Source: Actinomycetales bacterium (GTDB lineage Bacteria > Actinomycetota > Actinomycetes > Actinomycetales > CAVURS01). From it: a stretch of 64,000 nt of DNA. This document shows, piece after piece, positions 2,185 to 43,340 of the stretch. The stretch lies in assembly GCA_045807245.1 (NCBI GenBank), contig JBJMHS010000016.1, forward strand, positions 41,952 through 105,951. The letters are read 5' to 3'. The position numbers and the translations under genes were made by a program. Under the pieces are notes generated by a model that worked only from the letters and a program-made list of their open reading frames with translations, had not been told where the DNA came from and made no database searches. Each line of letters begins with the position of its first letter. Position 1 is the stretch's first letter.

Positions 2185-2795
2185 TCGGCGCCGCCCCCTG
2201 TTGGGCGTGACTCTGCGCGCGGACCGAACACCGCATAGGTGACCAGCCCGCCGACCGCGAGCGCAGCCGCGACGGCTTCGGTCGCCGAGGGATAGGCGGT
2301 AGACAGCACGGTCCACCAACGCAGCGGTGCTCCGGTGCGTCGGGCCAGATGAGGCAGCAGCACCACCAGCGGCACCGTCGAGGCGGGACCGAGTCCGAGC
2401 GTGCAGAGGGCCACCGTCGACAACCCGGCCAGGAGGCCGATGTCGATGCGCAGCTGGGTCGCTCCGATCAGACCCTGGACGGGCTGGAGTGCGACGAAGA
2501 CGACGACGACCGCGAACAACCACCAGGCCGCTCGCAGCCGGCCGAGGGGCCGAGCAGCCAAGGCGACGGCGGGGTCGACCTGGTCGTTCAGCACCACCGG
2601 CAGCAGCGAGATCGCCAGAACCGGAAGGATCAGCGTGACGCTGAGCGAGGCGTAGGAGTCACCCAGCGGGTTGGTCAGCCGGTCCTCGATGACACCTTGG
2701 GTGACAGCCCAGGTCAGGAGCATCAGGCCGACCAGGCCGAAGCCGGCGCCGGCCGTCGCGTGGTTGCTGAGCCAGACCCGGCGTACCGCACTCAC
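2181..2795 (-). CDS. Polytopic membrane protein, last gene of the ABC operon (possible ABC-2-like permease)
   Basis: Hydrophobic segments run through the C-terminal 200 aa of ORF 2181..2996. GTG at 2795 is the chosen start and is uncertain. Confidence 0.5.
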   Translation of the reverse strand: MSAVRRVWLSNHATAGAGFGLVGLMLLTWAVTQGVIEDRLTNPLGDSYASLSVTLILPVLAISLLPVVLNDQVDPAVALAARPLGRLRAAWWLFAVVVVFVALQPVQGLIGATQLRIDIGLLAGLSTVALCTLGLGPASTVPLVVLLPHLARRTGAPLRWWTVLSTAYPSATEAVAAALAVGGLVTYAVFGPRAESRPTGGGAD

Positions 2796-2925
2796 AGCGG
2801 CGTCCCCGTCGAGGGCAGGTCGGCAAAGCGGCAGGTGGCCAGGTCGGTCGCAAGCTCGGCCACCCGGGCTCGCTGTTGCTCTGGTGACCGCCGCAGGAAC
2901 CCGCTGACGTCGGCGCCGGCGTGGG

Positions 2926-4083
2926 TCACCCCCTTTCGCCCGACAGGCCAGGGTCCTGCCCGACCAGCCAGGTGAGCACGATCTGCTCCGCGGCACCTAC
3001 GTCGTCGAGATCGACGCCCGTCCTCCATTGTGGGCAGCCGCTGGGGGCGACGACTTCACCCATGATGACCAGGGACTCCGCCGGCTGGTAGGCGGTCTCC
3101 GGATCGAAGATCGTCAGCGTGTTCTCGGCCGGTGGTACGGACGGGAACCAGCCGACGAACGTGTCGGGCAACCCGCTGGCTCCCGTCGATCTGAGCAACA
3201 CTGCCGTTCGGTCGGCGATGTGGGCTGCGCGTTCCGCCAACCCGGCGTAGTCGGGCAGCACGCACACCTGGGGCCGCTCACCGGTGCAGTGATCGGCCAC
3301 CGGGATAGGAGCTCGGGGCGTCCAGACCAGGGGATGCGTCTGCACGACCCGGACTCCGAACAGCAACAGTCCGGCACAGGCGGACAGCTGGATCCACCGG
3401 CTTCGGCCGGCGGCGAAAGTGCTGCACGCTGCCAGCAGGGCGAGACCACTGACGGCCACGCAGAACGTCAGCCGACCAAGAACCGCAAGGTCGTCCGGGT
3501 GGCGGCTGATGAAGCTGCCCGACCCGCCGTCGCTGATGAATCCCAGCGGCCACCGGGGGCTGCCGTAGTCGGTGTAGGCCGCGAGCAACGCGACGGCCGC
3601 CGCCACCAGCAGGCCGACGAGGTGGTCGACGAACCAGCCGATGAGGTAGCCCAGAGCGGTGAACGCCGGAAACGCGGCGAACTGGACCAACAACGGACCG
3701 ATCGGCCACCCACCGACATGTGCCGTCGTCAGGCTGACGGCACCGAGGACCATCAGCACGAGCAGGTGAAGCACCGCCGGCACGCCCGCAGCGACGCTCA
3801 CCCGTACGGCGAGGTGCCGGCGTCCCTCGGCGCAGGAGCGGAGGAGTCCGCTGACGTCGAGCGCTCGGTCCTGCCGGGCCGACCACGCTCCGAGTCCGGC
3901 CAGGAACGGGGAGAACAGCATGACCACCGGCGCGATGGCCTCGACGAGCGAGCTGAGCTCGCCGCGCCATCCCGCCCCTCGGCTGAGGGCAACCATGACG
4001 TCCAGGCCGAGGAAGACCGGCAGGACGAGCCAGACCGCCGGAGAATGCAGGGCGACGGTGGCGATCCGACGCCTACCGCTCAC
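2926..4083 (-). CDS. Membrane protein with multiple TM helices and a Cys-containing C-terminal extracytoplasmic domain
   Basis: ORF 2926..4479. The first ~130 codons are an out-of-frame overlap with the ABC ATPase. GTG at 4083 precedes the first TM segment (ATVALHSPAVWLVLPVFLGL). Confidence 0.55.
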   Translation of the reverse strand: MSGRRRIATVALHSPAVWLVLPVFLGLDVMVALSRGAGWRGELSSLVEAIAPVVMLFSPFLAGLGAWSARQDRALDVSGLLRSCAEGRRHLAVRVSVAAGVPAVLHLLVLMVLGAVSLTTAHVGGWPIGPLLVQFAAFPAFTALGYLIGWFVDHLVGLLVAAAVALLAAYTDYGSPRWPLGFISDGGSGSFISRHPDDLAVLGRLTFCVAVSGLALLAACSTFAAGRSRWIQLSACAGLLLFGVRVVQTHPLVWTPRAPIPVADHCTGERPQVCVLPDYAGLAERAAHIADRTAVLLRSTGASGLPDTFVGWFPSVPPAENTLTIFDPETAYQPAESLVIMGEVVAPSGCPQWRTGVDLDDVGAAEQIVLTWLVGQDPGLSGERG

Positions 4084-25841: not shown

Positions 25842-27838
25842 TCAGGACGAGGAGGCGCCGGACGTCAGGTCGTAGACCGTGACCCCGTCCACCGTCTGGG
25901 CGGTGAAGTTGGCACTGACCCAGCTCGCGATCGCCGACGCGGCGTTGCTCCCGCTGCCGCCTTGGAACCCACCGCCGACCGACCCGGAGCCGATGAACTA
26001 GTGGATCTCGCCCGCAGCCACCCACGCCTTGAACTGGGCCAGGGTCGGCGATGGATCGCTCCCGTTGAACCCACCGATCGGCATGACCGACTCGCCGCTG
26101 GCCAGCTGGTAGCCCGCTCCGTTCTGGGCGCCGACCGTCGCGGCGACCCAGCGGTATGACGAGGCGTCGGCCCTGAGCAGGGCGGTCATCGCGGCACTCG
26201 AGGTGCTGCCGTTGAGCAGTCCGCCCATGCCGCCACCGGTCCCGCCGCCAGCCGGGCCGCCAGCCAGGCCGCCAGGCATCCCGCCAGGCGGCGTCCCGCC
26301 CCGAGCCAGCCCGCCAGCAGGCATCCCACCGCCGGGACGCCCCGTACCGCCGGCCACCGACGGGCCGGCCGTCACGATCGAGCCGCTGTGACCGACCGAC
26401 GCCGTCTGCATCGAGTACGCCGCGGGACCGGCCAGGCTGGTGACCAGGGCGGCCCCCGCGGCGGCTGCCGCCAGGCGGGGGGTCAGCAGGTTGACCCCGG
26501 CGACGGCGAACGCCGCAGCCAGACCACCGACCAGTACGGCGTACCGCAACCACGGGTGCCAGTCACTGCTGCGCTCGAGCAGGACGAACGACCAGATCGC
26601 TGTCAGGGCAACGGTTCCGGCCAGTGTGAGCGCCGCTGACAGATGCTGCCGGCCCCGCCACAGCGATGCCGCACCGACTCCGACGACGGCCGCGATCGCC
26701 GGCGCCAGAGCCACCGTGTAGTACTGGTGGAAGATGCCCTTCATCAGGCTGAAGGTCAGTCCGGTGACGACCAGCCAGCCGCCCCAGACGATCAGCAGGG
26801 CACGGGTCCGGTCGGTGCGGGGCGCGCGCCGGGTGAACCAGAGGCCGGCACCAGCAGGACCAGGGCCGCGGGCAGCAACCAGGCGATCTGACCGCCGATG
26901 TCCCCGTCGAACAGCCGGGTCAGACCGGTCGAGCCCCACATGCCGGCGCCGTTGGTGCCGCCGCCACCGACGCTGCCGGTCTCTTCTCCGGTGAGCCGGC
27001 CCAGACCGTTGTAGCCCCAGATCAGCTCCCACACGCTGTTGGTCTGCGACCCGCCGATGTACGGGCGGGACGAGGCCGGGACCAACGTCACGACGACGAC
27101 CCACCAGAGGCCGCTGACCAGCATGGCCACCCCCGCGACCACGAGCTGGAACAGCCTGCGGCGCAACGAGGTCGGCGCGACGATGAGATAGACGAGTGCG
27201 AGCCCTGGCACGACGAGCAGGGCCTGCAGGCTCTTGGTGAGGAAGGCCAGGCCGACCAGGGCACCGGCCAGCGCGAGCCATCGGGTGCCGGACCGGCGTA
27301 CCGCGGCGTCGATCGCCCGGGTGGTCGCGTAGACCGCTGCGACCATGAGCAGCACGAGCATCGCGTCCGGGTTGTTGAACCGGAACATCAACGTCGCGAC
27401 CGGTGTCGCGGCGAGGGCCAGCCCGGCCAGCAGACCGGCGCCCGAGCCGGCCCAGCGACGTACGGTCAGGTAGAGGAGGTAGACGGAGGCGACGCCCATG
27501 AGGGCTTCGGGGACGAGGATGCTCCAGCTGCTGACGCCGAAGATCCGGGCACTGACCTCCATGACCCACAACGACGCCGGCGGCTTGTCCACGGTGATCG
27601 AGCCGCCCGCGTCGGACGAGCCGAAGAAGAACGCGGCCCAGCTCTTGGTGCCGGCTTGCATGGCAGCGGAGTAGAAGGCGTTCGCCCACCCGTTGGCACT
27701 CAGGCCCCAGAGGTAGAGGACCGACGTCAGGCTCAACAGGCCGGCCAGCGCGGGACGGTGCCAGCCGGGATCGCCCGGCGCGGTGCTGGTGGGGGCCGGT
27801 GCGACCGGCGCAGGTGGCTGCGTGAGTGTCGTCGTCAT
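25842..27838 (-). pseudogene. GT39 (PMT_2/ArnT-like, GT-C fold) glycosyltransferase disrupted by one frameshift and one in-frame TAG
   Basis: The N-terminal part lies in ORF 26792..28123 (start ATG 27838, MTTTLTQ...) and continues in a different frame in ORF 25998..27689. The junction is at about 26848-26851, where LVLLV|AGLWFTRRAPRTDRTR needs one extra G. TAG at 25998-26000 is followed by 51 more in-frame coding-like codons (FIGSGS...VDGVTVYDLTSG...) to TGA 25842. Confidence 0.75.
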
Positions 27839-27860: not shown

Positions 27861-29438
27861 CTATGCGTCCGCTGTGACGGTCCTGGCCGGCTGCTGCGGA
27901 GGCAGCCACACCGTGAAGCGGGTGTCGCCGGGCCGGCTGGTGAGGCCCACGCGCCCATGGTGGGCCGCGACCACGGAGGAGACGATGGCCAGACCGAGAC
28001 CGCTGCTCCCGGCCGCCCTGGACCGTGAGGAGTCGCCACGGGCGAATCGCTCAAAAACATTGGGTCGCAACGAGTCTGGGATGCCGGGACCGTTGTCGCA
28101 GACGGCCATCTCGACGCCGCCACCGTTGCTGTCGACCGGCCGCAGGGTGACCGAGACCGTGGTGCCGGGCGCGGTGTGGGTGCGTGCGTTGGCCAGCAGG
28201 TTGGCGACGACCTGGTGCAGCTGCAGACGGTCGCCGTCGACCTGGACGGGCTCGTCCGGGAGGTCGAGCTGCCAGGTGTGGTCTGGCGCGGCAGCGTGCG
28301 CGTCGCTGAGGGCGTCGACGACCAGCTCGGACAGGTCGACCGGCTCGGTCTCGATCGGGCGCCCGGTGTCGAGGCGGGCCAGCAGCAGCAGGTCCTCGAC
28401 CAGGGTGCTCATCCGTTCGGCCGCCGACTCGACCCGCTCCATCGCGTGGGCCATCTGCGGGGGAGCCGTGTCGCGCTGCGGGCGGGTCAGCTCGGCGTAC
28501 CCGCGGATCGCCGCCAGCGGCGTGCGCAGCTCATGACTGGCGTCCGCGACGAAGTGGCGCACCTTCATCTCGCTGGCCTGTCGGGCGGCCAGGGCGTTCT
28601 CGACGTGGCCGATCATGTGGTTCAGCGCCGACCCGACCTGACCGACCTCGGTGTGCGGGTCGGTGTCGCGCGCGGGAACGCGCACGGGCAGCTCCACCTC
28701 GCCCGTGTCGAGCGGCAGCCCCGCGACGCTGCGTGCGGCCGACGCGACCCGGCGCAACGGCCGCAGGCTGAGCCGTACGACGAGCAGCACCAGGAACGCC
28801 GCGACCACCAGCCCGCCGACCGCGACCAGCGTGATCGTGACGGCGAGGCGGTACACCGTCGAGGTGACCGGCGACATCGGCAGGCCGGTGATCAGGGCAC
28901 TCCCGTCGCCGTCGGGGTCCTTCGACACGACCACCCGGTAGGTGCCGAGGCCGGGCAGGTCGACCGTGCGGGTGCGGTCGTCGGCCGGGATGCGCAGAAG
29001 CGCCTTCGTGACCGAGGTATCCGTGACCGGGATCCGGTTGCCCGAGTCGTCGAGGACGCCGGCCGCCTGGATCGTCCCGCCCGAGACCTGGGCCGCGAAC
29101 GTGCCTGCGCCCTGGCCCGGGGCGAGCAGTCCGGGGGGCAGCCCGTCATGCGGATGGGACTGCTGACCGCTGGGCTGTCCGGTCGCCGGCCCACCGCCGT
29201 ACCCGTCGGTGCCGTCGTCCGCCGACGAGCCGTCCGGGCTGTCCTGGTAGCTCACGGCACGATGAGAGGCCGCCGTGAGCCGGTCGTCCAGCTGCCCGAC
29301 CAGGAAGCTGCGCAACGCGACGACCGTCACGCTCCCGACGACGCCGCAGACGACGAGCAGCACCCCCACCAGGGCGGCGACGAGCCGGGCCCGGAGGGTC
29401 CAGCCGCCGAACCGTCGCGGTCGCAGACGCGAGGTCAA
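27861..29438 (-). CDS. Sensor histidine kinase (two TM segments, HAMP, HisKA, HATPase_c)
   Basis: H-box ASHELRTPLAAIRGYAEL and ATPase motifs (NLLANARTH, DNGPGI, GSSGLGLAIV). A probable TTG start at 29438 overlaps the regulator's TGA. Confidence 0.85.
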   Translation of the reverse strand: MTSRLRPRRFGGWTLRARLVAALVGVLLVVCGVVGSVTVVALRSFLVGQLDDRLTAASHRAVSYQDSPDGSSADDGTDGYGGGPATGQPSGQQSHPHDGLPPGLLAPGQGAGTFAAQVSGGTIQAAGVLDDSGNRIPVTDTSVTKALLRIPADDRTRTVDLPGLGTYRVVVSKDPDGDGSALITGLPMSPVTSTVYRLAVTITLVAVGGLVVAAFLVLLVVRLSLRPLRRVASAARSVAGLPLDTGEVELPVRVPARDTDPHTEVGQVGSALNHMIGHVENALAARQASEMKVRHFVADASHELRTPLAAIRGYAELTRPQRDTAPPQMAHAMERVESAAERMSTLVEDLLLLARLDTGRPIETEPVDLSELVVDALSDAHAAAPDHTWQLDLPDEPVQVDGDRLQLHQVVANLLANARTHTAPGTTVSVTLRPVDSNGGGVEMAVCDNGPGIPDSLRPNVFERFARGDSSRSRAAGSSGLGLAIVSSVVAAHHGRVGLTSRPGDTRFTVWLPPQQPARTVTADA

Positions 29439-30181
29439 GATGCCGGCTTGAGGATGTACCCGGCCCCGCGCAACGTGTGGATCATCGGCTCGCGGCCGGC
29501 GTCGATCTTCTTGCGCAGGTAGGAGATGTAGAGCTCGACCACGTTGGCCTGGCCGCCGAAGTCGTAGTTCCAGACGCGGTCCAGGATCTGGGCCTTGGAC
29601 AGCACCCGCCGGGGGTTGCGCATCAGGAAGCGCAACAGCTCGAACTCGGTGGCCGTCAGGTGGATCTGGTCGCCGGCGCGCCGTACCTCGTGGCTGTCCT
29701 CGTCCATCGTGAGGTCGCCGACCGTCAGGAGTGCCTCGTCGCGCGACTGCAGCAGGCCGCTGCGGCGCACCAGGCCGCGCAGCCGGGCGACGACCTCCTC
29801 GAGACTGAACGGCTTGGTGACGTAGTCGTCGCCACCTGCCGTGAGGCCTGCGATGCGGTCCTCGACACCGTCCTTGGCGGTCAGGAACAGGACCGGCACG
29901 TCGGTGCCGTCCGCGCGCAGCCGGCGCAGCACCTCGAGACCGTCGAGATCGGGCAGCATCACGTCGAGGACCACGGCGTCGGGACGGTAGCTGCGGGCGG
30001 TACGGACGGCAGCCAGGCCGTCGCCGCTGGTCTGCACGTCCCAGCCCTCGTAGCGCAGGGCCATCGACAGCAGCTCGGTCAGCGCCGGCTCGTCGTCGAC
30101 GACGAGGACGCGCACGGGCGTGCCGTCGAGGCGGGTCAGGACGGGGCGCGGCTGAGGCGTGGGGGACGTCGTCATGGTCAT
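29435..30181 (-). CDS. OmpR/PhoB-family response regulator
   Basis: Receiver VLVVDDEP...VVLDVMLPDLDG...LTAKD plus a winged-helix output domain (LTATEFELLRFLMRNPRRVLSKAQILDRVW). The start is ATG 30181 or 30175. Confidence 0.9.
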   Translation of the reverse strand: MTMTTSPTPQPRPVLTRLDGTPVRVLVVDDEPALTELLSMALRYEGWDVQTSGDGLAAVRTARSYRPDAVVLDVMLPDLDGLEVLRRLRADGTDVPVLFLTAKDGVEDRIAGLTAGGDDYVTKPFSLEEVVARLRGLVRRSGLLQSRDEALLTVGDLTMDEDSHEVRRAGDQIHLTATEFELLRFLMRNPRRVLSKAQILDRVWNYDFGGQANVVELYISYLRKKIDAGREPMIHTLRGAGYILKPAS

Positions 30182-30320
30182 GACTGTCGGGTCTGTGGCT
30201 GGGCGGGCGCCCGGCCCGGCCTGTGCGCTTCCTGTGAGCCTCCTGTCCTGAGCGTGCTGTTCGCCGCGGTCCACAGGAAGGGCACAGGGTCAGCCGGATG
30301 CGCTCACAGGTGCGCTGCTG

Positions 30321-30701
30321 ATGGTTACCGGCATGAACGCACACGACGACGCCCTCGACCCCATGCTCCCCTCCGGCACCGGTCCGGCGGGACCGGCCGG
30401 CCGCGACCAGGGCCGCCGCAAGCTCGCGGTGGCCACGGGCACCCTGCTCGCGCTCAGTGTGGGCGGCACGATCGGAGTCGCAGCCGTGGCCCACGCGGCG
30501 AGTTCGAACGGTACGGCGAGCTCCGCCAGCACGTCGTCGACGACCGGCACGGGCTCGGACTCGTCGGCCTCGAGCTCGGACTCGTCGGCCTCGAGCTCGG
30601 ACTCGTCGGCCTCGAGCTCGGACTCGTCCAGCTCGTCCGGCTCGGTCAGCCTCGGCAGCGGCAGCAGCGACTCCGGTGCCGCCACCTCCGGCGGGTCGTG
30701 A
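30321..30701 (+). CDS. Membrane-anchored Ser-rich low-complexity protein (126 aa)
   Basis: An ATG start, one TM/signal-anchor (LAVATGTLLALSVGGTIGVAAVAHA), then a Ser-rich tail ending SDSGAATSGGS. Its stop shares a base with the apbE ATG. Confidence 0.5.
   Translation: MVTGMNAHDDALDPMLPSGTGPAGPAGRDQGRRKLAVATGTLLALSVGGTIGVAAVAHAASSNGTASSASTSSTTGTGSDSSASSSDSSASSSDSSASSSDSSSSSGSVSLGSGSSDSGAATSGGS
30555..30617 (+). repeat. 21-bp perfect tandem repeat x3 (plus a partial fourth) coding SDSSASS
   Basis: TCGGACTCGTCGGCCTCGAGC x3, read directly in the sequence. Confidence 0.85.
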
Positions 30702-31642
30702 TGGCCCTCCTGGAGCGGCTGCCGGTCGGCCCGGACACGGCGCAGTGGCCGCTGTGGAGCACCACGGCGCGCGTCGTCGTGACCGACCCCTCGGCGCTGG
30801 CCGAGGCCCGCCGCATCACCGAGCAGGTCTGCGCCGAGGTGGACGCCGCCTGCAGCCGGTTCCGGCCCGACGCCGAGATCCACTGGGTCGCGCGCAATGC
30901 GGGCGAGTGGGTCACGGTCTCGCCCCTGCTGGCCGAGCTGGTCCGCACGGCCCTCGACGCCGCCCGGCGTACCGACGGTGACGTGGACCCGACCGTCGGC
31001 GACGCCATGAACCGGGCCGGGTACGACGGGGACATCCGCGTGATCACGACGCGCGGGCCCAAGGCTGTCGGGACGCGCGTCAGCGCGCGCCCGGTGGCCG
31101 GTTGGCAGTCGGTGCGGTTCGACGGTCACCACGTGCAGGTGCCCGAGGGCGTCAGTCTCGATCTCGGCGCCACCGCGAAGGCCTGGGCCGCGGATCGAGC
31201 CGCTGCTCTCGCCGCTGCTGCTCTCGGCGTCGGGGTGCTGGTCTCGCTCGGGGGAGACCTGGCTACGAACGGCCTTGCACCGCAATGGCCTTGGGCGATT
31301 CTGGTCTCGGACGGTCCGGGCCAGCCGGAGGCGCATGTGACGCTACCGGCCGGCGCGGCGCTCGCGACGTCGAGCACGATCAGCCGCACCTGGCGCCGCG
31401 GGGGGCAGAGCGTGCACCACGTCCTGGACCCGCGCACCTCGCTGCCGGCGCCCACCCTGTGGCGAACGGTCTCCGTGGCTGCGCCGACCTGCGTCGAGGC
31501 CAACGCGCTCTCGACGGCCAGCATCGTGCGCGGCCACCGAGCGGTGCCGTGGCTCTCCGCACAAGGTGTCACGGCGCGGCTGGTGACGTCCGCGGGCGAC
31601 GTGATCCGGCTCGGCGAGTGGCCGAAAGAGGCGGCGTCATGA
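30701..31642 (+). CDS. apbE: FAD:protein FMN transferase (ApbE family)
   Basis: ApbE-like motifs DPTVGDAMNRAGYD, LDLGATAKAWAAD, VSLGGDL and HHVLDPRT. Confidence 0.85.
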   Translation: MALLERLPVGPDTAQWPLWSTTARVVVTDPSALAEARRITEQVCAEVDAACSRFRPDAEIHWVARNAGEWVTVSPLLAELVRTALDAARRTDGDVDPTVGDAMNRAGYDGDIRVITTRGPKAVGTRVSARPVAGWQSVRFDGHHVQVPEGVSLDLGATAKAWAADRAAALAAAALGVGVLVSLGGDLATNGLAPQWPWAILVSDGPGQPEAHVTLPAGAALATSSTISRTWRRGGQSVHHVLDPRTSLPAPTLWRTVSVAAPTCVEANALSTASIVRGHRAVPWLSAQGVTARLVTSAGDVIRLGEWPKEAAS

Positions 31643-32220
31643 GTTCATCCACCGAGGCAGCGCTGTGGTACGTCGGTCGCGGCTCTGGCGTGGTCAGCCT
31701 GCTCCTGCTGACGCTCGTGATGGTGCTCGGGGTCGGATCCCGTTCCGGGCGGCCGGTCTTCGGCCTTCCCCGCTTTGCCGTGGTTGCCCTGCACCGCTCG
31801 GCCAGCATGATGGCGGTCGCCTTCCTGGCGATCCACGTCGTGACCCTGTTGCTGGATCCGCAGGCGGAGCTCCGCCTCGTCGACCTGGTGCTCCCGTTCG
31901 AGGTGTCCTACCGGCCGCTCTGGATGGGGCTGGGCACGGTCGGCCTCGATGTCATGGCGGCCGTGTTCGTAACCAGTCTGCTTCGGCACCGGCTCGGCGT
32001 CCGGGCCTGGCGAGCGGTCCACTGGCTGGCGTACCTCTCGTGGCCGGTGGCCGTGCTGCACACCGTCGGGACGGGCACGGACCGTTCGACGTGGTGGTTG
32101 CTCGCACTGACCGGACTGTCGATCGGGGCGGTCGGCACGGCCACGTTGTGGCGGCTCAGGGAGGGCTTCGGCCGGCCCCTTTCGCGCCTGGTCGCCGCAC
32201 CCGTGCAGGTGTCCCGGTGA
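31639..32220 (+). CDS. Ferric-reductase-like (MsrQ/YedZ-type) transmembrane haem-b protein
   Basis: ATGA overlap with apbE. Six TM segments carry four membrane-embedded His (ALHRS, AIHVV, AVHWL, VLHTV). Confidence 0.8.
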   Translation: MSSSTEAALWYVGRGSGVVSLLLLTLVMVLGVGSRSGRPVFGLPRFAVVALHRSASMMAVAFLAIHVVTLLLDPQAELRLVDLVLPFEVSYRPLWMGLGTVGLDVMAAVFVTSLLRHRLGVRAWRAVHWLAYLSWPVAVLHTVGTGTDRSTWWLLALTGLSIGAVGTATLWRLREGFGRPLSRLVAAPVQVSR

Positions 32221-33392
32221 CCGCCGTGTTCGAGCGTCCGGTCGGCGTACCGGCAGATCTCGGGAGCACACAGCGACTGACTGCCGCGATGGCGCCCGAC
32301 CTGCCGGCTCATCTGGGGCAGGTCGGCTCCTTGCCATCGCTGGACCGCGCGCACCTGCTCGCAGAGGTGCGGGCCGCCGGTCTGACCGGCCATGGTGGTG
32401 CAGCCTTCCCGACCTGGCGAAAATTGGAAACCGTTGCGGGTGGGCGCAATCCGGTCGTCATCGCGAACGGTGCCGAAGGCGAGCCCGCGAGCAGCAAGGA
32501 CCGTGCGCTCATGACCAGCGCGCCGCACCTTGTGCTCGACGGGCTCCAGGTGGCGGCAGCGATCACCGGCGCGCGGACGGCGTACGCCTACGTGCGCGCC
32601 TCTGCGGAGCCTTCGTTGCGGCGGGCGCTCGCCGAGCGCACGGATGCCGTGGCGGCGCAGCTCGTGACAGCGGCTGAGTCGTTCGTGTCCGGGCAGGAGA
32701 CCGCGGTCGTGTCGGCGATCGAGGGTGGTCGGCCGGTGCCCCGCGACGTACCGGATCTGGTGGTACGCCGGGGAGTTCGTGGCCGGCCGACCCTCGTGCA
32801 GAACGTCGAGACGCTCGCTCACCTGGCCCTGATCGCGCGCCGCGGTGGGTCGTGGTTCCGTTCGGTCGGCACCGAGCGGCAGCCGGGGACCTTCCTGGCC
32901 ACCGTGACCGGCGCGGTCCGCCGGCCCGGCGTCTGCGAGGCGGCGTACGGCGTGCCGCTCGGCGAGCTGGTCGGGCAGGCCGGTGGTGCGGTGGAGCCGT
33001 TGCAGGCGCTGCTGGTCGGTGGGTACCACGGAGTATGGCTACCTGCGTCGGCGCTGTCGGCACCGATGTCGGTCGAGGGCCTTCGGCAGTGGGGTGCGAC
33101 TCCCGGCGCGGGTGTCGTTGTCGCGGTCGGCTCCTCGGAGTCGGGCCTCGCCGTGACGGCTCGGATCGCGGCGTACCTGGCCAACGAGAACGCCCGCCAG
33201 TGCGGCCCGTGCCTGAACGGACTGCCCGCCATGGCAACGGTTTTGGGGCGCATGGCGAGCGGCTCGCCCGACCGGGCCCTGCCCCGGCAGGTGGAGTGGC
33301 TGACCCGGGTTGTCGAAGGCCGAGGGGCCTGTCATCACCCGGACGGGACGGCCCGGATGGTGCGGAGCGCGTTGGAGGTGTTCCCGCGATGA
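32217..33392 (+). CDS. NuoF-like NAD(P)H-binding FMN/4Fe-4S protein (complex I 51-kDa-subunit family)
   Basis: GTGA overlap. GLTGHGGAAFPTWRKL, ANGAEGEPASSKDRAL, SFVSGQETAVVSAIEG, NVETLAHL and the Cys cluster QCGPCLNG...GACHHPDG. Confidence 0.8.
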   Translation: MTAVFERPVGVPADLGSTQRLTAAMAPDLPAHLGQVGSLPSLDRAHLLAEVRAAGLTGHGGAAFPTWRKLETVAGGRNPVVIANGAEGEPASSKDRALMTSAPHLVLDGLQVAAAITGARTAYAYVRASAEPSLRRALAERTDAVAAQLVTAAESFVSGQETAVVSAIEGGRPVPRDVPDLVVRRGVRGRPTLVQNVETLAHLALIARRGGSWFRSVGTERQPGTFLATVTGAVRRPGVCEAAYGVPLGELVGQAGGAVEPLQALLVGGYHGVWLPASALSAPMSVEGLRQWGATPGAGVVVAVGSSESGLAVTARIAAYLANENARQCGPCLNGLPAMATVLGRMASGSPDRALPRQVEWLTRVVEGRGACHHPDGTARMVRSALEVFPR

Positions 33393-33607
33393 GCGAGACG
33401 AAGCTGCATGTCGACCGGGTCGCCTGCGACGGCCGCGGACTGTGCATCGAGCTGCTGCCCGAGCTGCTCGCGGCGGACCCCTGGGGCTACCCCGCGGGGC
33501 GGGACGGTGGCCGGGACACGTCAGTGCCCGACTCCCTGCGACTGCTCGCAGGACAGGCGGTTCGCGACTGCCCCCGCCTGGCGTTGAGCCTGCGACGCAG
33601 CGGATAG
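33389..33607 (+). CDS. Small ferredoxin (3-Cys, [3Fe-4S]-type pattern)
   Basis: ATGA overlap. Cys pattern ACDGRGLC ... DCP within 72 aa. Confidence 0.65.
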   Translation: MSETKLHVDRVACDGRGLCIELLPELLAADPWGYPAGRDGGRDTSVPDSLRLLAGQAVRDCPRLALSLRRSG

Positions 33608-33696: not shown

Positions 33697-36153
33697 ATGA
33701 ACGAAACCACCGGCGACGAGCAGCTCGATCGGCTGCTCGACGGGATCGAGGACCACGTCGACGCCGTGGCCGGTCGCGACCTGATGCCCTTGATGCGCCT
33801 CGACGGTCCGTCCCTCGCGTTGCACGCAGCGGGTCGCCGCATCGAGCGCATCCGGCGCAAGCTGCAGGGCTTCGACACCGGCTATGTCAAGGCGCTGGAC
33901 GCGGGTGACGAGGCTCAGCGCAGCGGGTTCGCCTCGACGGCGGCCTTCCTGGCGGCGCAGCTGCAGATCTCGCCGGGAGAAGCGCGAGCCCGGGTCAAGG
34001 CTGCGGCAGCCGGCGTGAGGCTCGAGCTCAGCGGCGGGTGCCTTCCACCGCAGCGGCCGGTGCTCGCCGCTGCCCGAGCCACCGGATCGGTGTCGGCGGA
34101 GCACACGGCGGTGATCATCGACGCGCTGGACCGGCTGCCATTCGGCACTGCGGCCGAGGACGTAATGGCGGCCGAGGAACGCCTGGTGTGCGAGGCCGAG
34201 CGGTTCGATCCGTCAGGGGTGGCGCGACTCGGGCGCCGGATCCTCGATCACATCGACCCCGACGGGACCTTGCGCGACCACAGCTGGAAGCAGCGGATCC
34301 GGACCGCATCGCTCACTCGGCACCACGACGGCACCGGCAGCCTGCGGGCCGTCCTCACGCCCGAGGCGCTGGAGACGTGGCAGACAGTGCTCGATCCACT
34401 GGCTCGCCCGCAGCCCACCGGACCGGAGGGGCCCGACCCGCGAACACCCGGCCAGCGGATGCACGACGCGCTGCACGACGCCGGAACGCGACTACTCGAT
34501 GTCGGCGACCTCCCGGCCTCAGGTGGGACACCGGCATCTGTCGTGATCCACATGACGAAGGAGCAGTACGACGCGCATCGGTGCGGGGCCGCCGAGGCGC
34601 TCGGCGACGACGAGCCGGCGGAGAGGTCGTCAGGTCTGGTCGAGACGGAGCACGGCAACCTGCTCCCCGTCCCGGCGGCCTTCGCCATGGCCGACCAGGC
34701 TGCCGTGTGCACTGTCATGACCGGCTCCAAGGACGTCCCGCTGCGGCTGGGTCGCGCCAGCCGGATCGCGACCCCCGGTCAGACCATCGCTTTGGCGGCG
34801 CGGGACCGGGGTTGCACCTTCCCAGGATGTGACCGCCCGGCGGCGTGGACCGAGCGTCACCATGTAGTCCCTTGGCATCGTGGCGGGCTCACCGACCTGG
34901 ACAACTTGGCGCTGGTCTGTGGCTACCACCACCGCAGCTTCGAGCCGCGAGGTTGGGCCTGTGTGATGAAGGACGGGCTTCCGCACTGGATCCCGCCGGC
35001 CTGGATCGACCCCGAGCGTCTTCCCATGCGCAACCACCGGCATGACGGGTCACTCAGCCGCCGGACGCGTTGCGGGTGGCGGTCAGTCGGCCGGCCGAAG
35101 CGCGGTGACCTCGGCTTTCGCCGGCGTACCGAAGAGCTCGTCGTACAGCGGGGTGGCGAGGATCACGGCCGCGTGCAGGTCACCGTCGCGGGTGGCGCGC
35201 TCGACCTGGCTCAATGCTGCCGACGGGTCGGCGATCTGCTGGCATCCCGGCCGCACGATGACCTGGAAGTCGAACAGGCGGTCGATCATCGGACCGCTGC
35301 CGCACAGCGTTGCCGGGCACCAGAGGTCGAGGTGTCCGGTGCCGTCGCTGATCTCGATCCGCTGGCCGGAGGCGCACCCGGCGAGTGCGACGACGCGAGC
35401 GCGGATCGCCCCGGTCGGCGACTCGCCTGCTCGAGCCCGGGCCAGCAGGTGGTCCACCGTCGTGAACGCCGACGGGAACGGCCCGTCCAGCTTGGCCCGG
35501 CTGGACGCCAGACGGACGGCCTGCGCGTCCGGCCACCGGCGGCCCGGGTCGAACTCGATGACGCCGAGCTCGCTGTGGTGGACGAACTCGCGCAGCTCGA
35601 GCATCGTCGCGAACAGGTCGACGTACGCCGCCACCGACGCGAAGGCCTGGACGACCGGCACGCTGCCGCCGGCCCAGCTGAAGCAGCCGCCGCGCCTCTG
35701 GCCCGGCTCGTCGAGCTCGACCAGGAGGTAGTCGTGACTTTCGTAGCACCAGGGGAAGTAGGACTCCATGCCCCAGTCCGGCGACAGCTGGTTGCGCCAC
35801 AGGCGGAGCGCGAGCCCCGGTCCGGCCGGCCGAGGACACGGCGACGCGGACAGGGTCTCCGGGTCCACGCTGCGCCAGAAGGCCATCAGGTCGGCGGGCA
35901 GCCGCCATGGCGCAATGGCCGCGGCGATCTCGGCCAGCACTGCTTCGATCTGTGGCCCCGGCTCCGACAGGTGGCCAAGCCCGGCGTCGGCGTGCGCGCG
36001 GCGCAGCCGGTCGACGGCCTCGATGACGTCCATGGTTTCCCCTCCACCAGCAGCGTCGTCGGGCACGGCGAGCCGCTTGAGGGCAGTGCGTCCGGATGGG
36101 GGCCAATTCCGGCCGGTTTTCAGTCCGTTGGAGGATCGACGTCGTGCCGGTGA
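33697..36153 (+). CDS. DUF222/HNH endonuclease (REP13E12-type family); the homologous part ends near 35060 but the frame has no stop until 36151-36153
   Basis: ATG at 33697, preceded by TATATT 7 nt upstream. HNH core CTFPGCDRPAAWTERHHVVPWHRGGLTDLDNLALVCGYHH. Beyond about 35080 the frame is the codon-register antisense of the convergent gene and translates to Arg-rich sequence. Confidence 0.7.
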   Translation: MNETTGDEQLDRLLDGIEDHVDAVAGRDLMPLMRLDGPSLALHAAGRRIERIRRKLQGFDTGYVKALDAGDEAQRSGFASTAAFLAAQLQISPGEARARVKAAAAGVRLELSGGCLPPQRPVLAAARATGSVSAEHTAVIIDALDRLPFGTAAEDVMAAEERLVCEAERFDPSGVARLGRRILDHIDPDGTLRDHSWKQRIRTASLTRHHDGTGSLRAVLTPEALETWQTVLDPLARPQPTGPEGPDPRTPGQRMHDALHDAGTRLLDVGDLPASGGTPASVVIHMTKEQYDAHRCGAAEALGDDEPAERSSGLVETEHGNLLPVPAAFAMADQAAVCTVMTGSKDVPLRLGRASRIATPGQTIALAARDRGCTFPGCDRPAAWTERHHVVPWHRGGLTDLDNLALVCGYHHRSFEPRGWACVMKDGLPHWIPPAWIDPERLPMRNHRHDGSLSRRTRCGWRSVGRPKRGDLGFRRRTEELVVQRGGEDHGRVQVTVAGGALDLAQCCRRVGDLLASRPHDDLEVEQAVDHRTAAAQRCRAPEVEVSGAVADLDPLAGGAPGECDDASADRPGRRLACSSPGQQVVHRRERRRERPVQLGPAGRQTDGLRVRPPAARVELDDAELAVVDELAQLEHRREQVDVRRHRREGLDDRHAAAGPAEAAAAPLARLVELDQEVVVTFVAPGEVGLHAPVRRQLVAPQAEREPRSGRPRTRRRGQGLRVHAAPEGHQVGGQPPWRNGRGDLGQHCFDLWPRLRQVAKPGVGVRAAQPVDGLDDVHGFPSTSSVVGHGEPLEGSASGWGPIPAGFQSVGGSTSCR
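35083..36066 (-). CDS. SMI1/KNR4 (SUKH-1)-like protein
   Basis: Balanced amino-acid composition. SUKH-like N-terminal pattern IEAVLAEIAAAIAPWRLPADLMAFWRSV and ...SHDYLLVELDEPG. The start is ATG 36066 or 36033. Confidence 0.55.
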   Translation of the reverse strand: MPDDAAGGGETMDVIEAVDRLRRAHADAGLGHLSEPGPQIEAVLAEIAAAIAPWRLPADLMAFWRSVDPETLSASPCPRPAGPGLALRLWRNQLSPDWGMESYFPWCYESHDYLLVELDEPGQRRGGCFSWAGGSVPVVQAFASVAAYVDLFATMLELREFVHHSELGVIEFDPGRRWPDAQAVRLASSRAKLDGPFPSAFTTVDHLLARARAGESPTGAIRARVVALAGCASGQRIEISDGTGHLDLWCPATLCGSGPMIDRLFDFQVIVRPGCQQIADPSAALSQVERATRDGDLHAAVILATPLYDELFGTPAKAEVTALRPAD

Positions 36154-40973: not shown

Positions 40974-43340
40974 TCAGTGCGTTGACGCAGCAGCCAGCCG
41001 GTCGGCGGCGCGGGTCAGCGCCTCCGCGAGCAACCGGCTCGTTGTCACATCAACGGCGCGCGGCGCCTGCCCGGCTGCAGCGTCCGCGAGGAGCTGCTTG
41101 ACGTGCGTGGCCAGGAGATCGCGTTGGCCGGCCAGCAGGCCCAGTGCGCGCTGCACCCGCCTGAACGTCCGGTCGTCCGCGCCCGACCCACTCGCCAGCG
41201 CTGCGCTGTCCGCGATGAGGGTCGCCGTCGCGAACTCGCCGACGCTGGAGTTCAGCTGCTGGTAGGCCGAGGCCAGGCCCTCCGTGCCCTGCAAGGCCTG
41301 CGGCACCTGGGTGAGCGCCTGGGTGATCACCCGCCCGTCGGTCTGGTAGTCGTCCCTGAGGCCGACCAGCGACAACAGCGTCGGCCGGAGGTCGGTCTCC
41401 TCGACCCAGGTGCCGACCGTGCTCGCCTCCGGGACAGTGCGTAGCGAGTTCGGGTCCGACGGCTGGTTGCCCTGCGCCGGCGAGGGCCCGTCGACACCGC
41501 GCGCCGCCACACCCGGCCCGACCAGGGCCGACCACGTGACGTCGATGTTCGGGCTGTAGTAGCCGTGGTCCCAGGCGAACGCCGAGTTGATGCTGACGTT
41601 CGGACCGGACGTCCCGAAGAAGTAGTCCGGCTTCGGGAACAGCGTGTACGTCGGTGTCCGCAGCGGATCCGCGGTCTGCAGGTGCAGGATGCGCTGTTCC
41701 GTCGCACCAGCCTGATAGTTGGTGATCTTCTCGCCGTTGACACCCGAGTACGGGTTGTCCCCTGTCATCGCCGCGGTGTCGCGTTCCAGCTGACGCACGG
41801 TGGGGTCATCGGCCACCGGTTGGCCGTGGACGTAGATCGCGGCACCCTGCGGCTCGATGTCGAACGCCGTACCGCTGCTGGCCGTGGTCGACAGCAGGCC
41901 CTTGATGTTGGCAGCCAGCTCGCCGATCTGGCCGTTCGCGTAGTTGCAGGCCACGGTGACGCCGTCGCAGCCGGCCGGTGTCGGCTCGGTCGCCCGGCCC
42001 ACGTTGGCCCCGGCGAACTGATCGTTCTCCTCCGCACTGATCACGAACTCGGTGTTCGCCGGCGTGATCCCGTCCTTGGTGAGGCGGTCGAAGAACTTCG
42101 CGAATGCGGAGTCGTATCGCGCGGCGTTGCCCACGTAGCAGCTGTCACCGGGCCCGATCGGCCGGCCGGTCGCGGTCGCCGATGCGGTCGTGCACCCGCT
42201 CGTGCCCGCCTTCCGCTCGTGCAGGTCGGAGATGTACCCGTAGGTCACCGGGACGCCGCTCTCCTGCATGTCGGCGAGGTACCCGAGGGTCTGGGACGCC
42301 GTCGGGCTGAACCCTGGGAAGCCGGGCTGCGTCGTGAAGGCGCCGATCAGCGGTTGGCCGTCGATGTCGGTCAGGTTGCCGTTGGCGTCGGTGACCGGAT
42401 ACCCGTTGTGCGTGAGGTTCGGCGTGCCCTGGCCCAGCTGCGGCGCGAGGTAGCGATCGCCGAACAGCGCCTGGTAGCCGTGGTAGCCGCCGGGCTCGGT
42501 CGGCAGCAGGTCCGGAGCCGCCGTAGGGGTCGCCGTCGTCTGGCCGAACTTCACTCCGGTGGCGCCGGCACAGAGGCTGTCGTGCTTCGCGCAGTGCAGC
42601 GCGATGCCGATGTAGTCGGCCTGCTCCGCGTCCTTGAAGCTGTCCGGGTCGGCGTTGAGCTGCGCGACCTCCGGCGAGCTCGGACCGAAGACGCTCGACA
42701 GGTCGAGCTTGGTGTTCTCGAGCACCATGTTGGCCGTGGAGAAGTCACCGACCGAGCAGCCGGCCCGGGTGAACGGCACCCAGGGTGCGGGCGTCTGGCG
42801 GTCGGTCGAGTGCGTCGTACTCGTCGGCACCTTCGGCGAGTAGGCCATGGAGGGCGAGGTGTCGTGACCGGTGGTCGGCGTCGAGGCCGTGTCGTAGACC
42901 GGCGAGGTCCAGTAGGCGAACGAGCCCGCGGGGTCCGTCGTCCCGTCCGGGTTGTAGGTCTTGTAGGAGTTGCTGACCGCCTGACCGTGCCGGTCGCCGT
43001 ACAGGCCGGTGTAGATGGTGAGGCTGTCGTCGGCGGTGTGCGCGATCAACGGCGTGTGGGTGTTGGAGAACACGGTCCCGTACTGCTTGAGGAAGTCGAG
43101 GAGGTGCGGCATCTGCTCCAAGTCCGACGGCACGTTGGGGTTGTCCCTCGAGAAGTGGACGTTGTCGAACACGAGACTGACGACGTGCTTGACGCCGTTG
43201 CCAAGATGACATGTCGGGTCACCCGAGCCGGCCTGTGCCGGAACGCTCATCGCCGGTACGCCGAGTGCCATCGCACTCGTCACGACAGCCGCCGCGCCGA
43301 TGCCCGTCGCTCTCCGACCGCTCCCGCCGATAATCTTCAT
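40974..43340 (-). CDS. Large secreted protein, probable alkaline-phosphatase-superfamily (phosphodiesterase-like) N-terminal domain
   Basis: ATG at 43340 (MKIIGGSGRRATGIGAAAVVTSAMALGVPAMSVPAQA signal). HVVSLVFDNVHF...MPHLLDFLKQYGTVFSNTHTPLIAHTADDSLTIYTGLYGDRHG resembles the metal/nucleophile region. The family call is tentative. Confidence 0.55.
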   Translation of the reverse strand: MKIIGGSGRRATGIGAAAVVTSAMALGVPAMSVPAQAGSGDPTCHLGNGVKHVVSLVFDNVHFSRDNPNVPSDLEQMPHLLDFLKQYGTVFSNTHTPLIAHTADDSLTIYTGLYGDRHGQAVSNSYKTYNPDGTTDPAGSFAYWTSPVYDTASTPTTGHDTSPSMAYSPKVPTSTTHSTDRQTPAPWVPFTRAGCSVGDFSTANMVLENTKLDLSSVFGPSSPEVAQLNADPDSFKDAEQADYIGIALHCAKHDSLCAGATGVKFGQTTATPTAAPDLLPTEPGGYHGYQALFGDRYLAPQLGQGTPNLTHNGYPVTDANGNLTDIDGQPLIGAFTTQPGFPGFSPTASQTLGYLADMQESGVPVTYGYISDLHERKAGTSGCTTASATATGRPIGPGDSCYVGNAARYDSAFAKFFDRLTKDGITPANTEFVISAEENDQFAGANVGRATEPTPAGCDGVTVACNYANGQIGELAANIKGLLSTTASSGTAFDIEPQGAAIYVHGQPVADDPTVRQLERDTAAMTGDNPYSGVNGEKITNYQAGATEQRILHLQTADPLRTPTYTLFPKPDYFFGTSGPNVSINSAFAWDHGYYSPNIDVTWSALVGPGVAARGVDGPSPAQGNQPSDPNSLRTVPEASTVGTWVEETDLRPTLLSLVGLRDDYQTDGRVITQALTQVPQALQGTEGLASAYQQLNSSVGEFATATLIADSAALASGSGADDRTFRRVQRALGLLAGQRDLLATHVKQLLADAAAGQAPRAVDVTTSRLLAEALTRAADRLAAASTH

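Follow-up and report, generated by a model that had tools for sequence, protein, structure and literature searches.

A domain-less, membrane-anchored small protein as candidate flavin carrier of an apbE–msrQ-like–nuoF-like operon in actinobacteria

The DNA analysed here (the window: 64,000 nucleotides of an Actinomycetales bacterium, positions 41,952 to 105,951 of contig JBJMHS010000016.1) carries a plus-strand operon in which a Ser-rich small open reading frame (ORF) is followed by genes for an ApbE homologue, an MsrQ-like membrane cytochrome, a NuoF-like protein and a ferredoxin. The operon is read, with a probability of about 0.55, as an electron conduit of the published MsrQ-like flavinylation type, whose flavin carrier would be the product of the small ORF, a bitopic membrane protein without an FMN_bind domain. 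The parts list and the direction of electron flow are not new, because they are identical to a published model (PMC8238504). The new part is the small protein itself, widely conserved, undescribed and domain-less, with an ApbE-like motif at its C-terminus, together with its distinctive ApbE partner, which lacks a signal peptide and carries Asn in place of a conserved Asp.

The window has a G+C content of about 72%, and the closest database matches of its sequence are metagenome-assembled Actinomycetota. The stop and start codons of the five genes overlap, with the junctions reading, in order, TCGTGATGG, ATGA, GTGA and ATGA. An earlier note on this DNA had described five translationally chained genes, and both their coordinates and the overlapping junctions agree with that description. 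At the first junction (...TCG TGA TGG...) the TGA of the small ORF shares one base with the ATG of apbE at 30701, as the note had it, or overlaps a GTG at 30698 by 4 nt. The small ORF itself more probably starts at the ATG at 30333 (MNAHDD..., 122 aa), as in its relatives. The domain assignments proposed for the other four products, as an ApbE, a ferric-reductase/MsrQ-like protein, a NuoF-like protein and a ferredoxin, all pass the thresholds of the corresponding Pfam models.

An FMN_bind domain, which the earlier note had not seen either, was found neither in the small ORF nor in its family nor in the window ORFs examined. The small ORF product has no Pfam or NCBIfam match, and none to FMN_bind at E ≤ 1. 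Six gene-like ORFs of the 64-kb window carry the canonical [ST]GA[ST] (an FtsX permease, an MFS transporter, an amino-acid permease, a methyltransferase, a hydrolase and an SDR), and none of the six has FMN_bind. Within the operon the relaxed pattern [ST]G[AGS][ST] is absent from ApbE, the MsrQ-like protein, the NuoF-like protein and the ferredoxin, so that the small ORF is its sole carrier among the five products. A flavinylation site in any of those four proteins was rejected on this ground. The segment WGA[ST]PGAG of the NuoF-like family was set aside as well, being without the first Ser/Thr; it corresponds to a normal NuoF segment.

Relatives of the operon were first found through look-ups of the NuoF-like protein, which gave loci at 80%, 75%, 59% and 58% identity. 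Each of these four has a short ORF directly before apbE, and none has an FMN_bind gene among the genes called within ±5 kb. An alignment of NuoF-like proteins scanned against 185,579 species genomes yielded at least 584 relatives, from which 80 loci were taken; their sources include Amycolatopsis, Actinoplanes, Nocardia, Rhodococcus erythropolis, Mycobacterium, Streptomyces, Frankia, Sinomonas, Kineosporiaceae and Solirubrobacterales. In 64 loci apbE lies directly upstream of msrQ (tblastn), in the order apbE–msrQ–nuoF–fdx, and 61 of these have a small ORF with this architecture whose stop lies at or shortly before apbE. In loci without an adjacent apbE, the small ORF can stand directly upstream of msrQ (L018, L028, L035, L040, L043, L045, L050, L062, L075 and L084). 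In all, about 70 of the roughly 80 evaluable loci, from both Actinomycetes and Thermoleophilia, have a counterpart immediately upstream of apbE or msrQ. The small ORF is the most constant neighbour of the apbE/msrQ/nuoF module. The synteny comparison suggested in the earlier note thus finds the small ORF conserved and no full FMN_bind gene at its position in the loci examined. Across 61 members of the small-protein family no meaningful Pfam or NCBIfam match was obtained, and none to FMN_bind at E ≤ 0.01.

The conservation concerns the protein and not only its position. Between the window and locus L002, the anchor codons show 15 synonymous and 2 non-synonymous differences; between the window and locus L003, the last eight codons show 7 synonymous and no non-synonymous differences. 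Because synonymous changes dominate, selection acts on the small protein, and it is nearly certain that the small ORF is a functional, conserved gene.

The family is characterised by an Arg-rich N-terminus, a single hydrophobic transmembrane (TM) helix, a hypervariable low-complexity tail and a conserved C-terminus. The anchor is conserved in the relatives as GRRRLAVATGTLLALSLGGTIGVAAVAHA, with an RR pair in 44 of 62 members and KK, RxR or QR elsewhere. In the window it reads G-R-R-K-L-A-V, followed by 25 uncharged residues and AHA|A, and in three Amycolatopsis loci the small protein has the lipobox LVAC. The segment is predicted to be a signal-anchor or a signal of the twin-arginine translocation (Tat) or Sec type, with the N-terminus inside and the C-terminus outside (N-in/C-out). 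Single-sequence AlphaFold2 (AF2) models were of low confidence (predicted local distance difference test, pLDDT, about 50) and were used for helix counts only; for the small protein they give one helix at residues 24–54 (122-aa numbering) and a tail modelled as coil with pLDDT below 50.

The tail of the window protein contains the perfect 21-bp repeats that the earlier note had pointed out, encoding SDSSASS and present at 30553–30628 in 3.6 copies of 100% identity (TRF). The repeats do not stand up as a functional part, since the corresponding region is a hypervariable linker across the family. It varies from 39 to 130 aa (median 65) and differs in composition by lineage, being S/T-rich in the window, P/A/T-rich in Mycobacterium and A/Q-rich in locus L022. 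This suggests that the linkers evolve by tandem repeat expansion and that tail length, rather than sequence, is maintained.

The family is poorly represented in databases. In exact-sequence look-ups, the window product was absent from a collection of 15 billion proteins and most relatives were also unmatched, the only one recorded being the R. erythropolis orthologue, a 91-aa 'hypothetical protein' in RefSeq (WP_024487686.1). In the 15 cluster variants listed for that protein the anchor is kept, and H85, A86, R87, S88, G90 and S91 of its C-terminal HARSAGS are invariant. The antisense strand of the Ser-rich region in the window (30290–31336, minus strand) encodes a long acidic ORF (…DESELEADESELEAD…), and in locus L004 the gene caller annotated the antisense ORF (2745–3098, minus strand) and missed the real small ORF. 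Given that antisense call and the unrecorded window product, the family is systematically under-annotated. Two further observations concern individual loci. The tails of L046 and L048 contain repeats such as GSTSTGSTSTGSTATGSTGTG. In three Amycolatopsis loci an extra membrane-anchored protein is encoded directly upstream of the small ORF (L005, 2664–3263; L007, 2595–3302; L009, 2437–2976); it has a Gly-rich linker and a weak, below-threshold DUF5666 match (3.5e-5), and the small proteins of the same loci are those with the lipobox.

The conserved element is the extreme C-terminus, which resembles an ApbE site. The window protein ends in ...SDSGAATSGGS, and the family consensus is [H/D]-A-[T/R]-S-[G/S]-[G/A]-S-stop. 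Counted back from the stop in 56 loci, position −1 is S in 53; position −2 is G in 42 and A in 12; position −3 is G in 33, S in 10 and A in 5; and position −4 is S in 45 and T in 9. The preceding positions are looser, with T (27), R (8) or S (8) at −5, A (35) at −6, and H (16) or D (11) at −7. The pattern [ST].[GA]S$ is present in 52 of the 56 loci, compared with a mean of 2.1 and a maximum of 7 when every tail is shuffled (2000 trials), and its internal 4-mer rate is 3%. The terminal motif is also kept in 12 tails that are poor in S and T. The earlier note had singled out the SGAAT segment as a near miss of the ApbE target; that segment is not conserved (relatives have SGSAAT, SSQAV or AGHGR), and it is the terminal TSGGS that is.

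Some constraint on this stretch operates at the nucleotide level. At −3 and −2 the codons GGA and GGG are over-represented, and the apbE start often takes its A or G from the last Ser codon. In seven 'type B' proteins, the motif is internal (…VATSGGSGVT…) and is followed by about 25 more residues; because of this placement the motif is not merely the ribosome-binding site of apbE. For the Gly at −2 all four codons are in use. The sequence is thus doubly constrained, yet nucleotide constraint alone cannot explain the amino-acid conservation.

The minimal ApbE motif has been described as the seven residues D-x-x-[S/T]-G-A-[S/T], with FMN (flavin mononucleotide) attached to the last one (PMC12052999). 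Nine loci, eight of Streptomyces plus L048, end in exactly D-x-x-S-G-A-S. The window terminus A-A-T-S-G-G-S fits the canonical 7-mer at positions 4, 5 and 7, and does not fit it at Asp1 and Ala6. In mutagenesis of the motif, D-to-A had a minor effect, and changes at the G and A positions reduced flavinylation (PMC12052999). The terminal residue, Ser126, is the predicted FMN attachment site.

The enzyme encoded next to the small ORF is a clear member of the ApbE family. Its Pfam ApbE match (PF02424) scores 164.6 bits against a cut-off of 25.6 (E 4e-48) and starts at aa 21, and thirteen ApbE/Ftp sequences of the PDB match it with E values of 1e-25 to 3e-11. The elements DPT, DLGAxAK, GGD, ATS and HHxxDP are essentially invariant across 61 orthologues, which indicates that the catalytic His and the FAD-binding elements are kept. 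By family membership, the enzyme is a candidate Mg2+-dependent FMN transferase acting on a Ser/Thr target. Its start overlaps the small-ORF stop by 4 nt in 41 of the 61 loci and by one base in 7, so that the two genes are coupled in 48. No signal peptide or lipobox was found in any of the 61 orthologues, in which 9–47 hydrophilic residues precede the domain. The operon ApbE is therefore predicted to be located in the cytoplasm, and not outside it, as the electron path drawn in the earlier note implied. In lacking a signal peptide it is similar to the less common cytosolic ApbEs, of which the second ApbE of Klebsiella pneumoniae is an example (PMC12052999).

A second peculiarity lies in the active site. 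According to a 2025 review (PMC12052999), only three active-site residues are conserved in ApbE, namely Ser241, His257 and Asp285 in Vibrio cholerae numbering. The His (in HHxxDP) and the Ser (in ATS) are invariant in the operon family, and the Asp (V. cholerae D285, Treponema pallidum D284) is replaced by Asn. In alignments with PDB sequences, N268 of the window enzyme (31502–31504) aligns with D284 of T. pallidum Ftp, and T272 with T288. It is mainly because of this replacement that the enzyme is not filed here as an ordinary ApbE.

The remaining three products supply a plausible path across the membrane. The MsrQ-like protein matches Pfam Ferric_reduct (PF01794) with 41 bits against a threshold of 28 (E 2.4e-10). 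The four His residues highlighted by the earlier note (H52, H66, H128 and H141, spaced H-x13-H and H-x12-H) are indeed invariant, in 77–78 of 78 sequences. Hydropathy, charge bias and a low-confidence AF2 model with five long helices predict five TM helices in an N-out/C-in arrangement, with H52 and H128 towards the inside and H66 and H141 towards the outside. In the window protein the Pfam domain begins at aa 16, compared with aa 47, past the first TM helix, in Escherichia coli MsrQ, and the window protein is on that account taken to have no equivalent of TM1. The helix of the small protein could be this TM1 in detached form, a possibility that fits both its N-in/C-out orientation and its upstream gene position. 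In Solirubrobacterales the MsrQ-like protein is longer, at about 370 aa (L062, 3829–4944; L075, 3838–4944): a sixth TM helix follows the five, then a S-rich linker with two copies of 'SHASSSG' and a C-terminal, beta-rich domain of about 110 aa without a Pfam match. These two loci keep a separate small ORF ending in …SSSGGS or …VTSGGS.

The NuoF-like protein matches Complex1_51K (115 bits against 31, E 2.8e-33), NADH_4Fe-4S (53 bits against 23.5, E 3.4e-14) and SLBB (27 bits against 27, E 4e-6). With 205 bits it falls far under the cut-off of 558 of the NuoF equivalog TIGR01959, and so it is not regarded as a complex I subunit. The motifs GxGGxxFP, NxxEGEPxxxKD and FxxGxE and the residues C329, C332 and C372 are invariant. 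The window protein lacks the first Cys of CxxCxxC, which leaves three of the usual four cluster Cys. The NuoF-like proteins of the window clade (six sequences, at least 72% identical) end in …VFxR, without the extension of about 15–30 residues (…HLxGxC…) that gives a fourth Cys elsewhere; possible cluster ligands in this clade are C329, C332, C372 and the invariant His374. Finally, the ferredoxin matches Fer4_15 (41.9 bits against 22.4, E 1.7e-10), and the three-Cys pattern attributed to this 72-aa product holds, with C13, C19 and C61 (Pro next) invariant in 81 sequences.

From these parts we infer cofactors, topology, the direction of the electrons, flavinylation and its place before export, and an acceptor at the far end, as follows. 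NAD(P)H would be oxidised in the cytoplasm by the NuoF-like protein, from whose iron–sulphur (Fe-S) cluster electrons would pass to the three-Cys ferredoxin and on to the inner haem of the MsrQ-like protein. The membrane would be crossed through the two bis-His haems b of this protein with five TM helices. The small protein would stand beside the cytochrome, where its single N-in/C-out helix may replace the absent TM1, and would expose a disordered, hypervariable tail ending in ...A-T-S-G-G-S-COOH. ApbE, translationally coupled to the small ORF, would move FMN from FAD (flavin adenine dinucleotide) to the terminal Ser, and the tethered, solvent-exposed FMN would take electrons from the outer haem and pass them to some extracytoplasmic acceptor. 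The position of the tail outside the cell is suggested by the positive-inside N-terminus, the acidic or neutral tails, the lipobox in the three Amycolatopsis loci and the AHA|A site in the window.

Flavinylation would most likely precede export and take place in the cytoplasm, because ApbE has no export signal; the tail would be exported afterwards by Tat or Sec. Targeting of the small protein must be post-translational since the protein is so short. Modification before export is consistent with the translational coupling of the small ORF and apbE, and with the frequent RR pair followed by a mildly hydrophobic h-region rich in Gly, Thr and Ala. The Tat pathway exports proteins already loaded with a cofactor, and small, unstructured, hydrophilic proteins can also pass through it. 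Such a route would spare the export of FAD.

We somewhat favour the view that the small protein is an ApbE substrate. The fuller picture can be called a 'flavin on a leash': a disordered, membrane-tethered peptide, its last Ser flavinylated in the cytoplasm by the signal-less Asn-variant ApbE before export, whose TM helix would complete the 5-TM di-haem cytochrome and whose tail of 39–130 residues would let the FMN carry electrons back and forth from the outer haem, across the cell wall, to external acceptors. This picture is tentative, and the odds are rather against it than for it.

Several points weigh against a flavinylated small protein. The Asp of the ADALxT segment is Asn in all 61 cognate ApbEs, and because this conserved Asp is reported as catalytic or Mg-binding, the chemistry of the enzyme may differ; the Asn may substitute as a Mg ligand or may mark altered chemistry. 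The window motif TSGGS departs from the canonical one in having Gly in place of Ala and Ala in place of Asp. Of the 56 family loci, 23 have S, A, Q or R where the canonical motif has 'G', and the acceptor is never Thr. The motif is predicted outside and ApbE inside, which obliges the model to place modification before export, and we know of no precedent for flavinylation ahead of export. About 30% of the small-protein family lack the RR pair. The contact between the small protein and the MsrQ-like protein is deduced from synteny and the count of TM helices, with AF2 models of low confidence, and the flavin itself is placed on the small protein from sequence features.

The best surviving alternative, which we consider unlikely, makes the small protein a structural subunit of the cytochrome, for example as its detached TM1, and leaves ApbE to serve some other target. 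The tail and the motif would then have a role unrelated to flavin, for instance as a docking element, a His/carboxylate ligand, a glycosylated wall-spanning spacer or a sorting signal. In favour of this, the small ORF remains with msrQ in loci without an adjacent apbE, and the MsrQ-like protein is without TM1; strict SGA[ST] is absent from most family members, and His is common at −7 (16 of 56). Against it, the exact canonical 7-mer stands at the very C-terminus of nine orthologues, and apbE is start/stop-coupled to the small ORF in 48 of 61 loci. Moreover, no other operon protein has [ST]G[AGS][ST], and no FMN_bind was seen in the ±5 kb of four loci or in the 61 small proteins.

Less probable still is that the signal-less Asn-variant ApbE is not a protein flavin transferase at all, and either acts in the cytoplasm as an FAD-binding protein or an FAD pyrophosphatase, or delivers flavin to the MsrQ-like or NuoF-like protein, with the likeness of the motif being convergent or vestigial. 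T. pallidum Ftp is an FAD pyrophosphatase as well, E. coli MsrQ carries the annotation of a flavocytochrome, and the operon ApbE is predicted to be cytoplasmic. The replacement of Asp by Asn, in 61 of 61 sequences, affects a residue reported to be catalytic or Mg-binding (PMC12052999). Against this, no variation is seen in the catalytic His, the Ser or the FAD-binding motifs, and the C-terminal motif of the small protein is under purifying selection right beside the gene of the enzyme. Furthermore, Asn can still ligate Mg2+.

The earlier note had left open whether the small ORF is a decayed FMN_bind gene or a minimal flavin acceptor. Conservation, purifying selection and the C-terminal motif favour the second. 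A pseudogene remnant has very little probability left, even though the protein has the outline of actinobacterial FMN_bind proteins minus the domain (an anchor, then a low-complexity linker and, close to the end, a motif). The same domain-less architecture recurs in about 70 loci from Actinomycetes and Thermoleophilia, its anchor and C-terminus are under purifying selection, there is no room for a lost domain between the small ORF and apbE, and none of the loci examined has a full FMN_bind gene at the position. Weakest of all is the proposal that the small ORF is a chance frame in DNA of 73% G+C, or its C-terminus merely the Shine–Dalgarno sequence and start of apbE or a programmed frameshift into it. 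Long open frames do occur in all frames of the region, and the GGA/GGG enrichment and the TCA/TCG–TGA overlaps that carry the apbE start do betray some nucleotide constraint; synonymous differences nevertheless far exceed non-synonymous ones, all four Gly codons are used at −2, and the motif is internal in type B proteins and kept in loci with apbE at a distance of 62 nt (L004), on the opposite strand (L040) or missing (L018, L035 and others). A programmed −1 frameshift, which would export ApbE as an anchor–linker–ApbE fusion, was also rejected: the arrangement is not found in all loci, and no slippery sequence is conserved, seven of the last eight codons being different in the window and L003.

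The proposal of a domain-less flavin carrier can be placed against systems already known. Méheust et al. (2021, eLife, PMC8238504) defined the 'MsrQ-like' flavinylation clusters of Actinobacteria, 31 of which include a NuoF-like protein as the presumed entry point of NAD(P)H. The window operon shares with them the phylum, an apbE beside a PF01794 di-haem membrane protein, and a cytoplasmic NuoF-like NAD(P)H module. The proposed flow is also the same, from cytosolic NAD(P)H through the haems to an extracytosolic flavin, and so the chain that the earlier note had read from the parts list, from NADH through the NuoF-like protein, the ferredoxin and a di-haem wire to a flavin, matches the published clusters. 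The operon differs from them in having no FMN_bind protein, with the domain-less small protein in its place. A family of signal-less ApbEs would not have entered that analysis through its own ApbE. Genomes with orphan apbE genes remain, so that some substrates are unidentified (PMC8238504).

The closest likeness to the proposed modification is the Flavin-tag, in which engineered terminal tags of 7–12 residues are fully flavinylated in E. coli by a truncated, signal-less cytoplasmic ApbE (Tong et al. 2021, PMC9400968; PMC12052999). FMN attached in this way is spectrally like free FMN (PMC9400968, PMC12052999). For the tag a short, unstructured terminal peptide with the acceptor Ser/Thr at its end suffices, as it would for the small protein, and so does a cytoplasmic signal-less ApbE. 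The Flavin-tag is artificial, whereas the small protein would be a natural, conserved gene product with the acceptor as its very last residue, and its consensus, [H/D]-A-[T/R]-S-[G/S]-[G/A]-S-COOH, is to be set against D-x-x-[S/T]-G-A-[S/T] of the tag. A natural parallel comes from the FMN_red proteins flavinylated by ApbE, which have the motif in an unstructured extension at their C-terminus (Huang et al. 2024, mSystems, PMC11334425). They resemble the small protein in carrying the motif in such a region and not in an FMN_bind fold. The tail of FMN_red folds back onto its own flavin-binding site (PMC11334425); the small protein has no folded domain, and a pocket would need the MsrQ-like partner.

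Two families of membrane cytochromes offer further comparisons. Like E. coli MsrPQ, the operon combines a PF01794 membrane cytochrome with a divergent OmpR-type two-component system (hprRS in E. coli). E. coli MsrQ differs in having six TM helices, in reducing the periplasmic molybdoenzyme MsrP and in lacking ApbE, NuoF-like or ferredoxin partners, while the window operon has no MsrP homologue. At the E. coli K-12 locus (L086, NC_000913.3 2036794–2041118) msrPQ adjoins the divergent hprRS, and the likeness to the window may be coincidental. Oxidoreductases with a ferric-reductase domain of the NOX, FRE and STEAP types contain bis-His di-haem TM helices fed by a cytoplasmic NAD(P)H flavoprotein, and the MsrQ-like protein of the window shares their H-x13-H and H-x12-H spacing. 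They have a fused FNR-type FAD/NADPH domain and no external flavin, in contrast to the separate NuoF-like protein and ferredoxin of the window. A literature search turned up neither an ApbE substrate that is domain-less or disordered nor any work on this operon in actinobacteria; its coverage was incomplete, and an earlier description may exist.

Should the small protein prove to be flavinylated, it would be the first ApbE substrate in nature to lack a folded domain, in effect a native Flavin-tag. It would define an unannotated family in Streptomyces, Rhodococcus, Nocardia, Mycobacterium, Amycolatopsis, Actinoplanes, Frankia and Thermoleophilia, and would explain part of the 'orphan' apbE genes without a known substrate (PMC8238504). 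A redox cofactor carrier without a domain would be a new solution to extracytoplasmic electron transfer. It would raise the question of how cofactor attachment by a cytoplasmic enzyme precedes export, and that of the role of a protein-free tethered flavin outside a Gram-positive or mycolate cell, for which iron reduction, extracellular electron transfer, and reactive-oxygen production or defence are candidates. The pair could also yield shorter or orthogonal flavin-tagging systems for protein engineering.

Table 1. Features of the operon and of the adjoining two-component system (positions in the window; GC3, G+C content at third codon positions)
Feature	Position	Strand	Remarks
Small ORF, candidate domain-less flavin carrier	30321..30701	+	126 aa from ATG 30321; ORF and translation, GC3 0.91, positional orthologues
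Twin-Arg and hydrophobic segment of small ORF	30414..30497	+	R32 R33 K34, L35-A59, ending AHA|A
Ser/Thr/Gly/Asp-rich low-complexity tail (linker) of small ORF	30498..30680	+	Includes 21-bp repeat 30553-30628
C-terminal motif A-T-S-G-G-S-COOH	30681..30698	+	Ser126 is the predicted FMN attachment site; family logo
ApbE-family FAD:protein FMN transferase homologue, 313 aa	30701..31642	+	Pfam ApbE; alternative GTG start 30698
MsrQ-like/ferric-reductase-domain di-haem b membrane protein, 193 aa	31639..32220	+	Pfam Ferric_reduct; predicted 5 TM
NuoF-like NAD(P)H/FMN/Fe-S protein, 391 aa	32217..33392	+	Complex1_51K, NADH_4Fe-4S, SLBB
Single-cluster ferredoxin, 72 aa, three Cys	33389..33607	+	Fer4_15
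OmpR/PhoB-family response regulator, divergent, candidate operon regulator	29438..30181	-	Generic OmpR-family NCBIfam matches
HAMP/HisKA/HATPase sensor histidine kinase, cognate	27864..29438	-	Relatives and profile matches

The operon is divergent from an OmpR-type two-component system, as described before (Table 1), whose response regulator reached no equivalog threshold among its NCBIfam matches. An orthologue of this regulator (at least 70% identity) adjoins the operon in about 17 of 84 loci, and a GT-C glycosyltransferase (PMT_2/YkcB_C) in about 8 of 84. Because they are adjacent in so few loci, neither is taken as a constant part of the system, and the idea that the GT-C glycosyltransferase is a component that glycosylates the S/T tail was dropped for the same reason. 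In the window the GT-C gene (25860–27778, minus strand; about 670 aa in relatives) is broken across two frames. Residues 42–356 of the L004 homologue match 27778–26879 in frame −1, and residues 368–667 match 26846–25860 in frame −3. Since the two halves sit in different frames, a frameshift is placed near 26850–26880, and it would reflect either a pseudogene or an error in the metagenome-assembled genome.

Downstream of the operon, a gene of the DUF222/HNH-endonuclease type (33703–35046, plus strand) is 67% identical to an L003 gene with PF02720. It lies between the ferredoxin gene and the next conserved gene (35104–36033, minus strand), in the window as in L003, and is not at that position in L002; on this distribution it looks like a mobile insertion.

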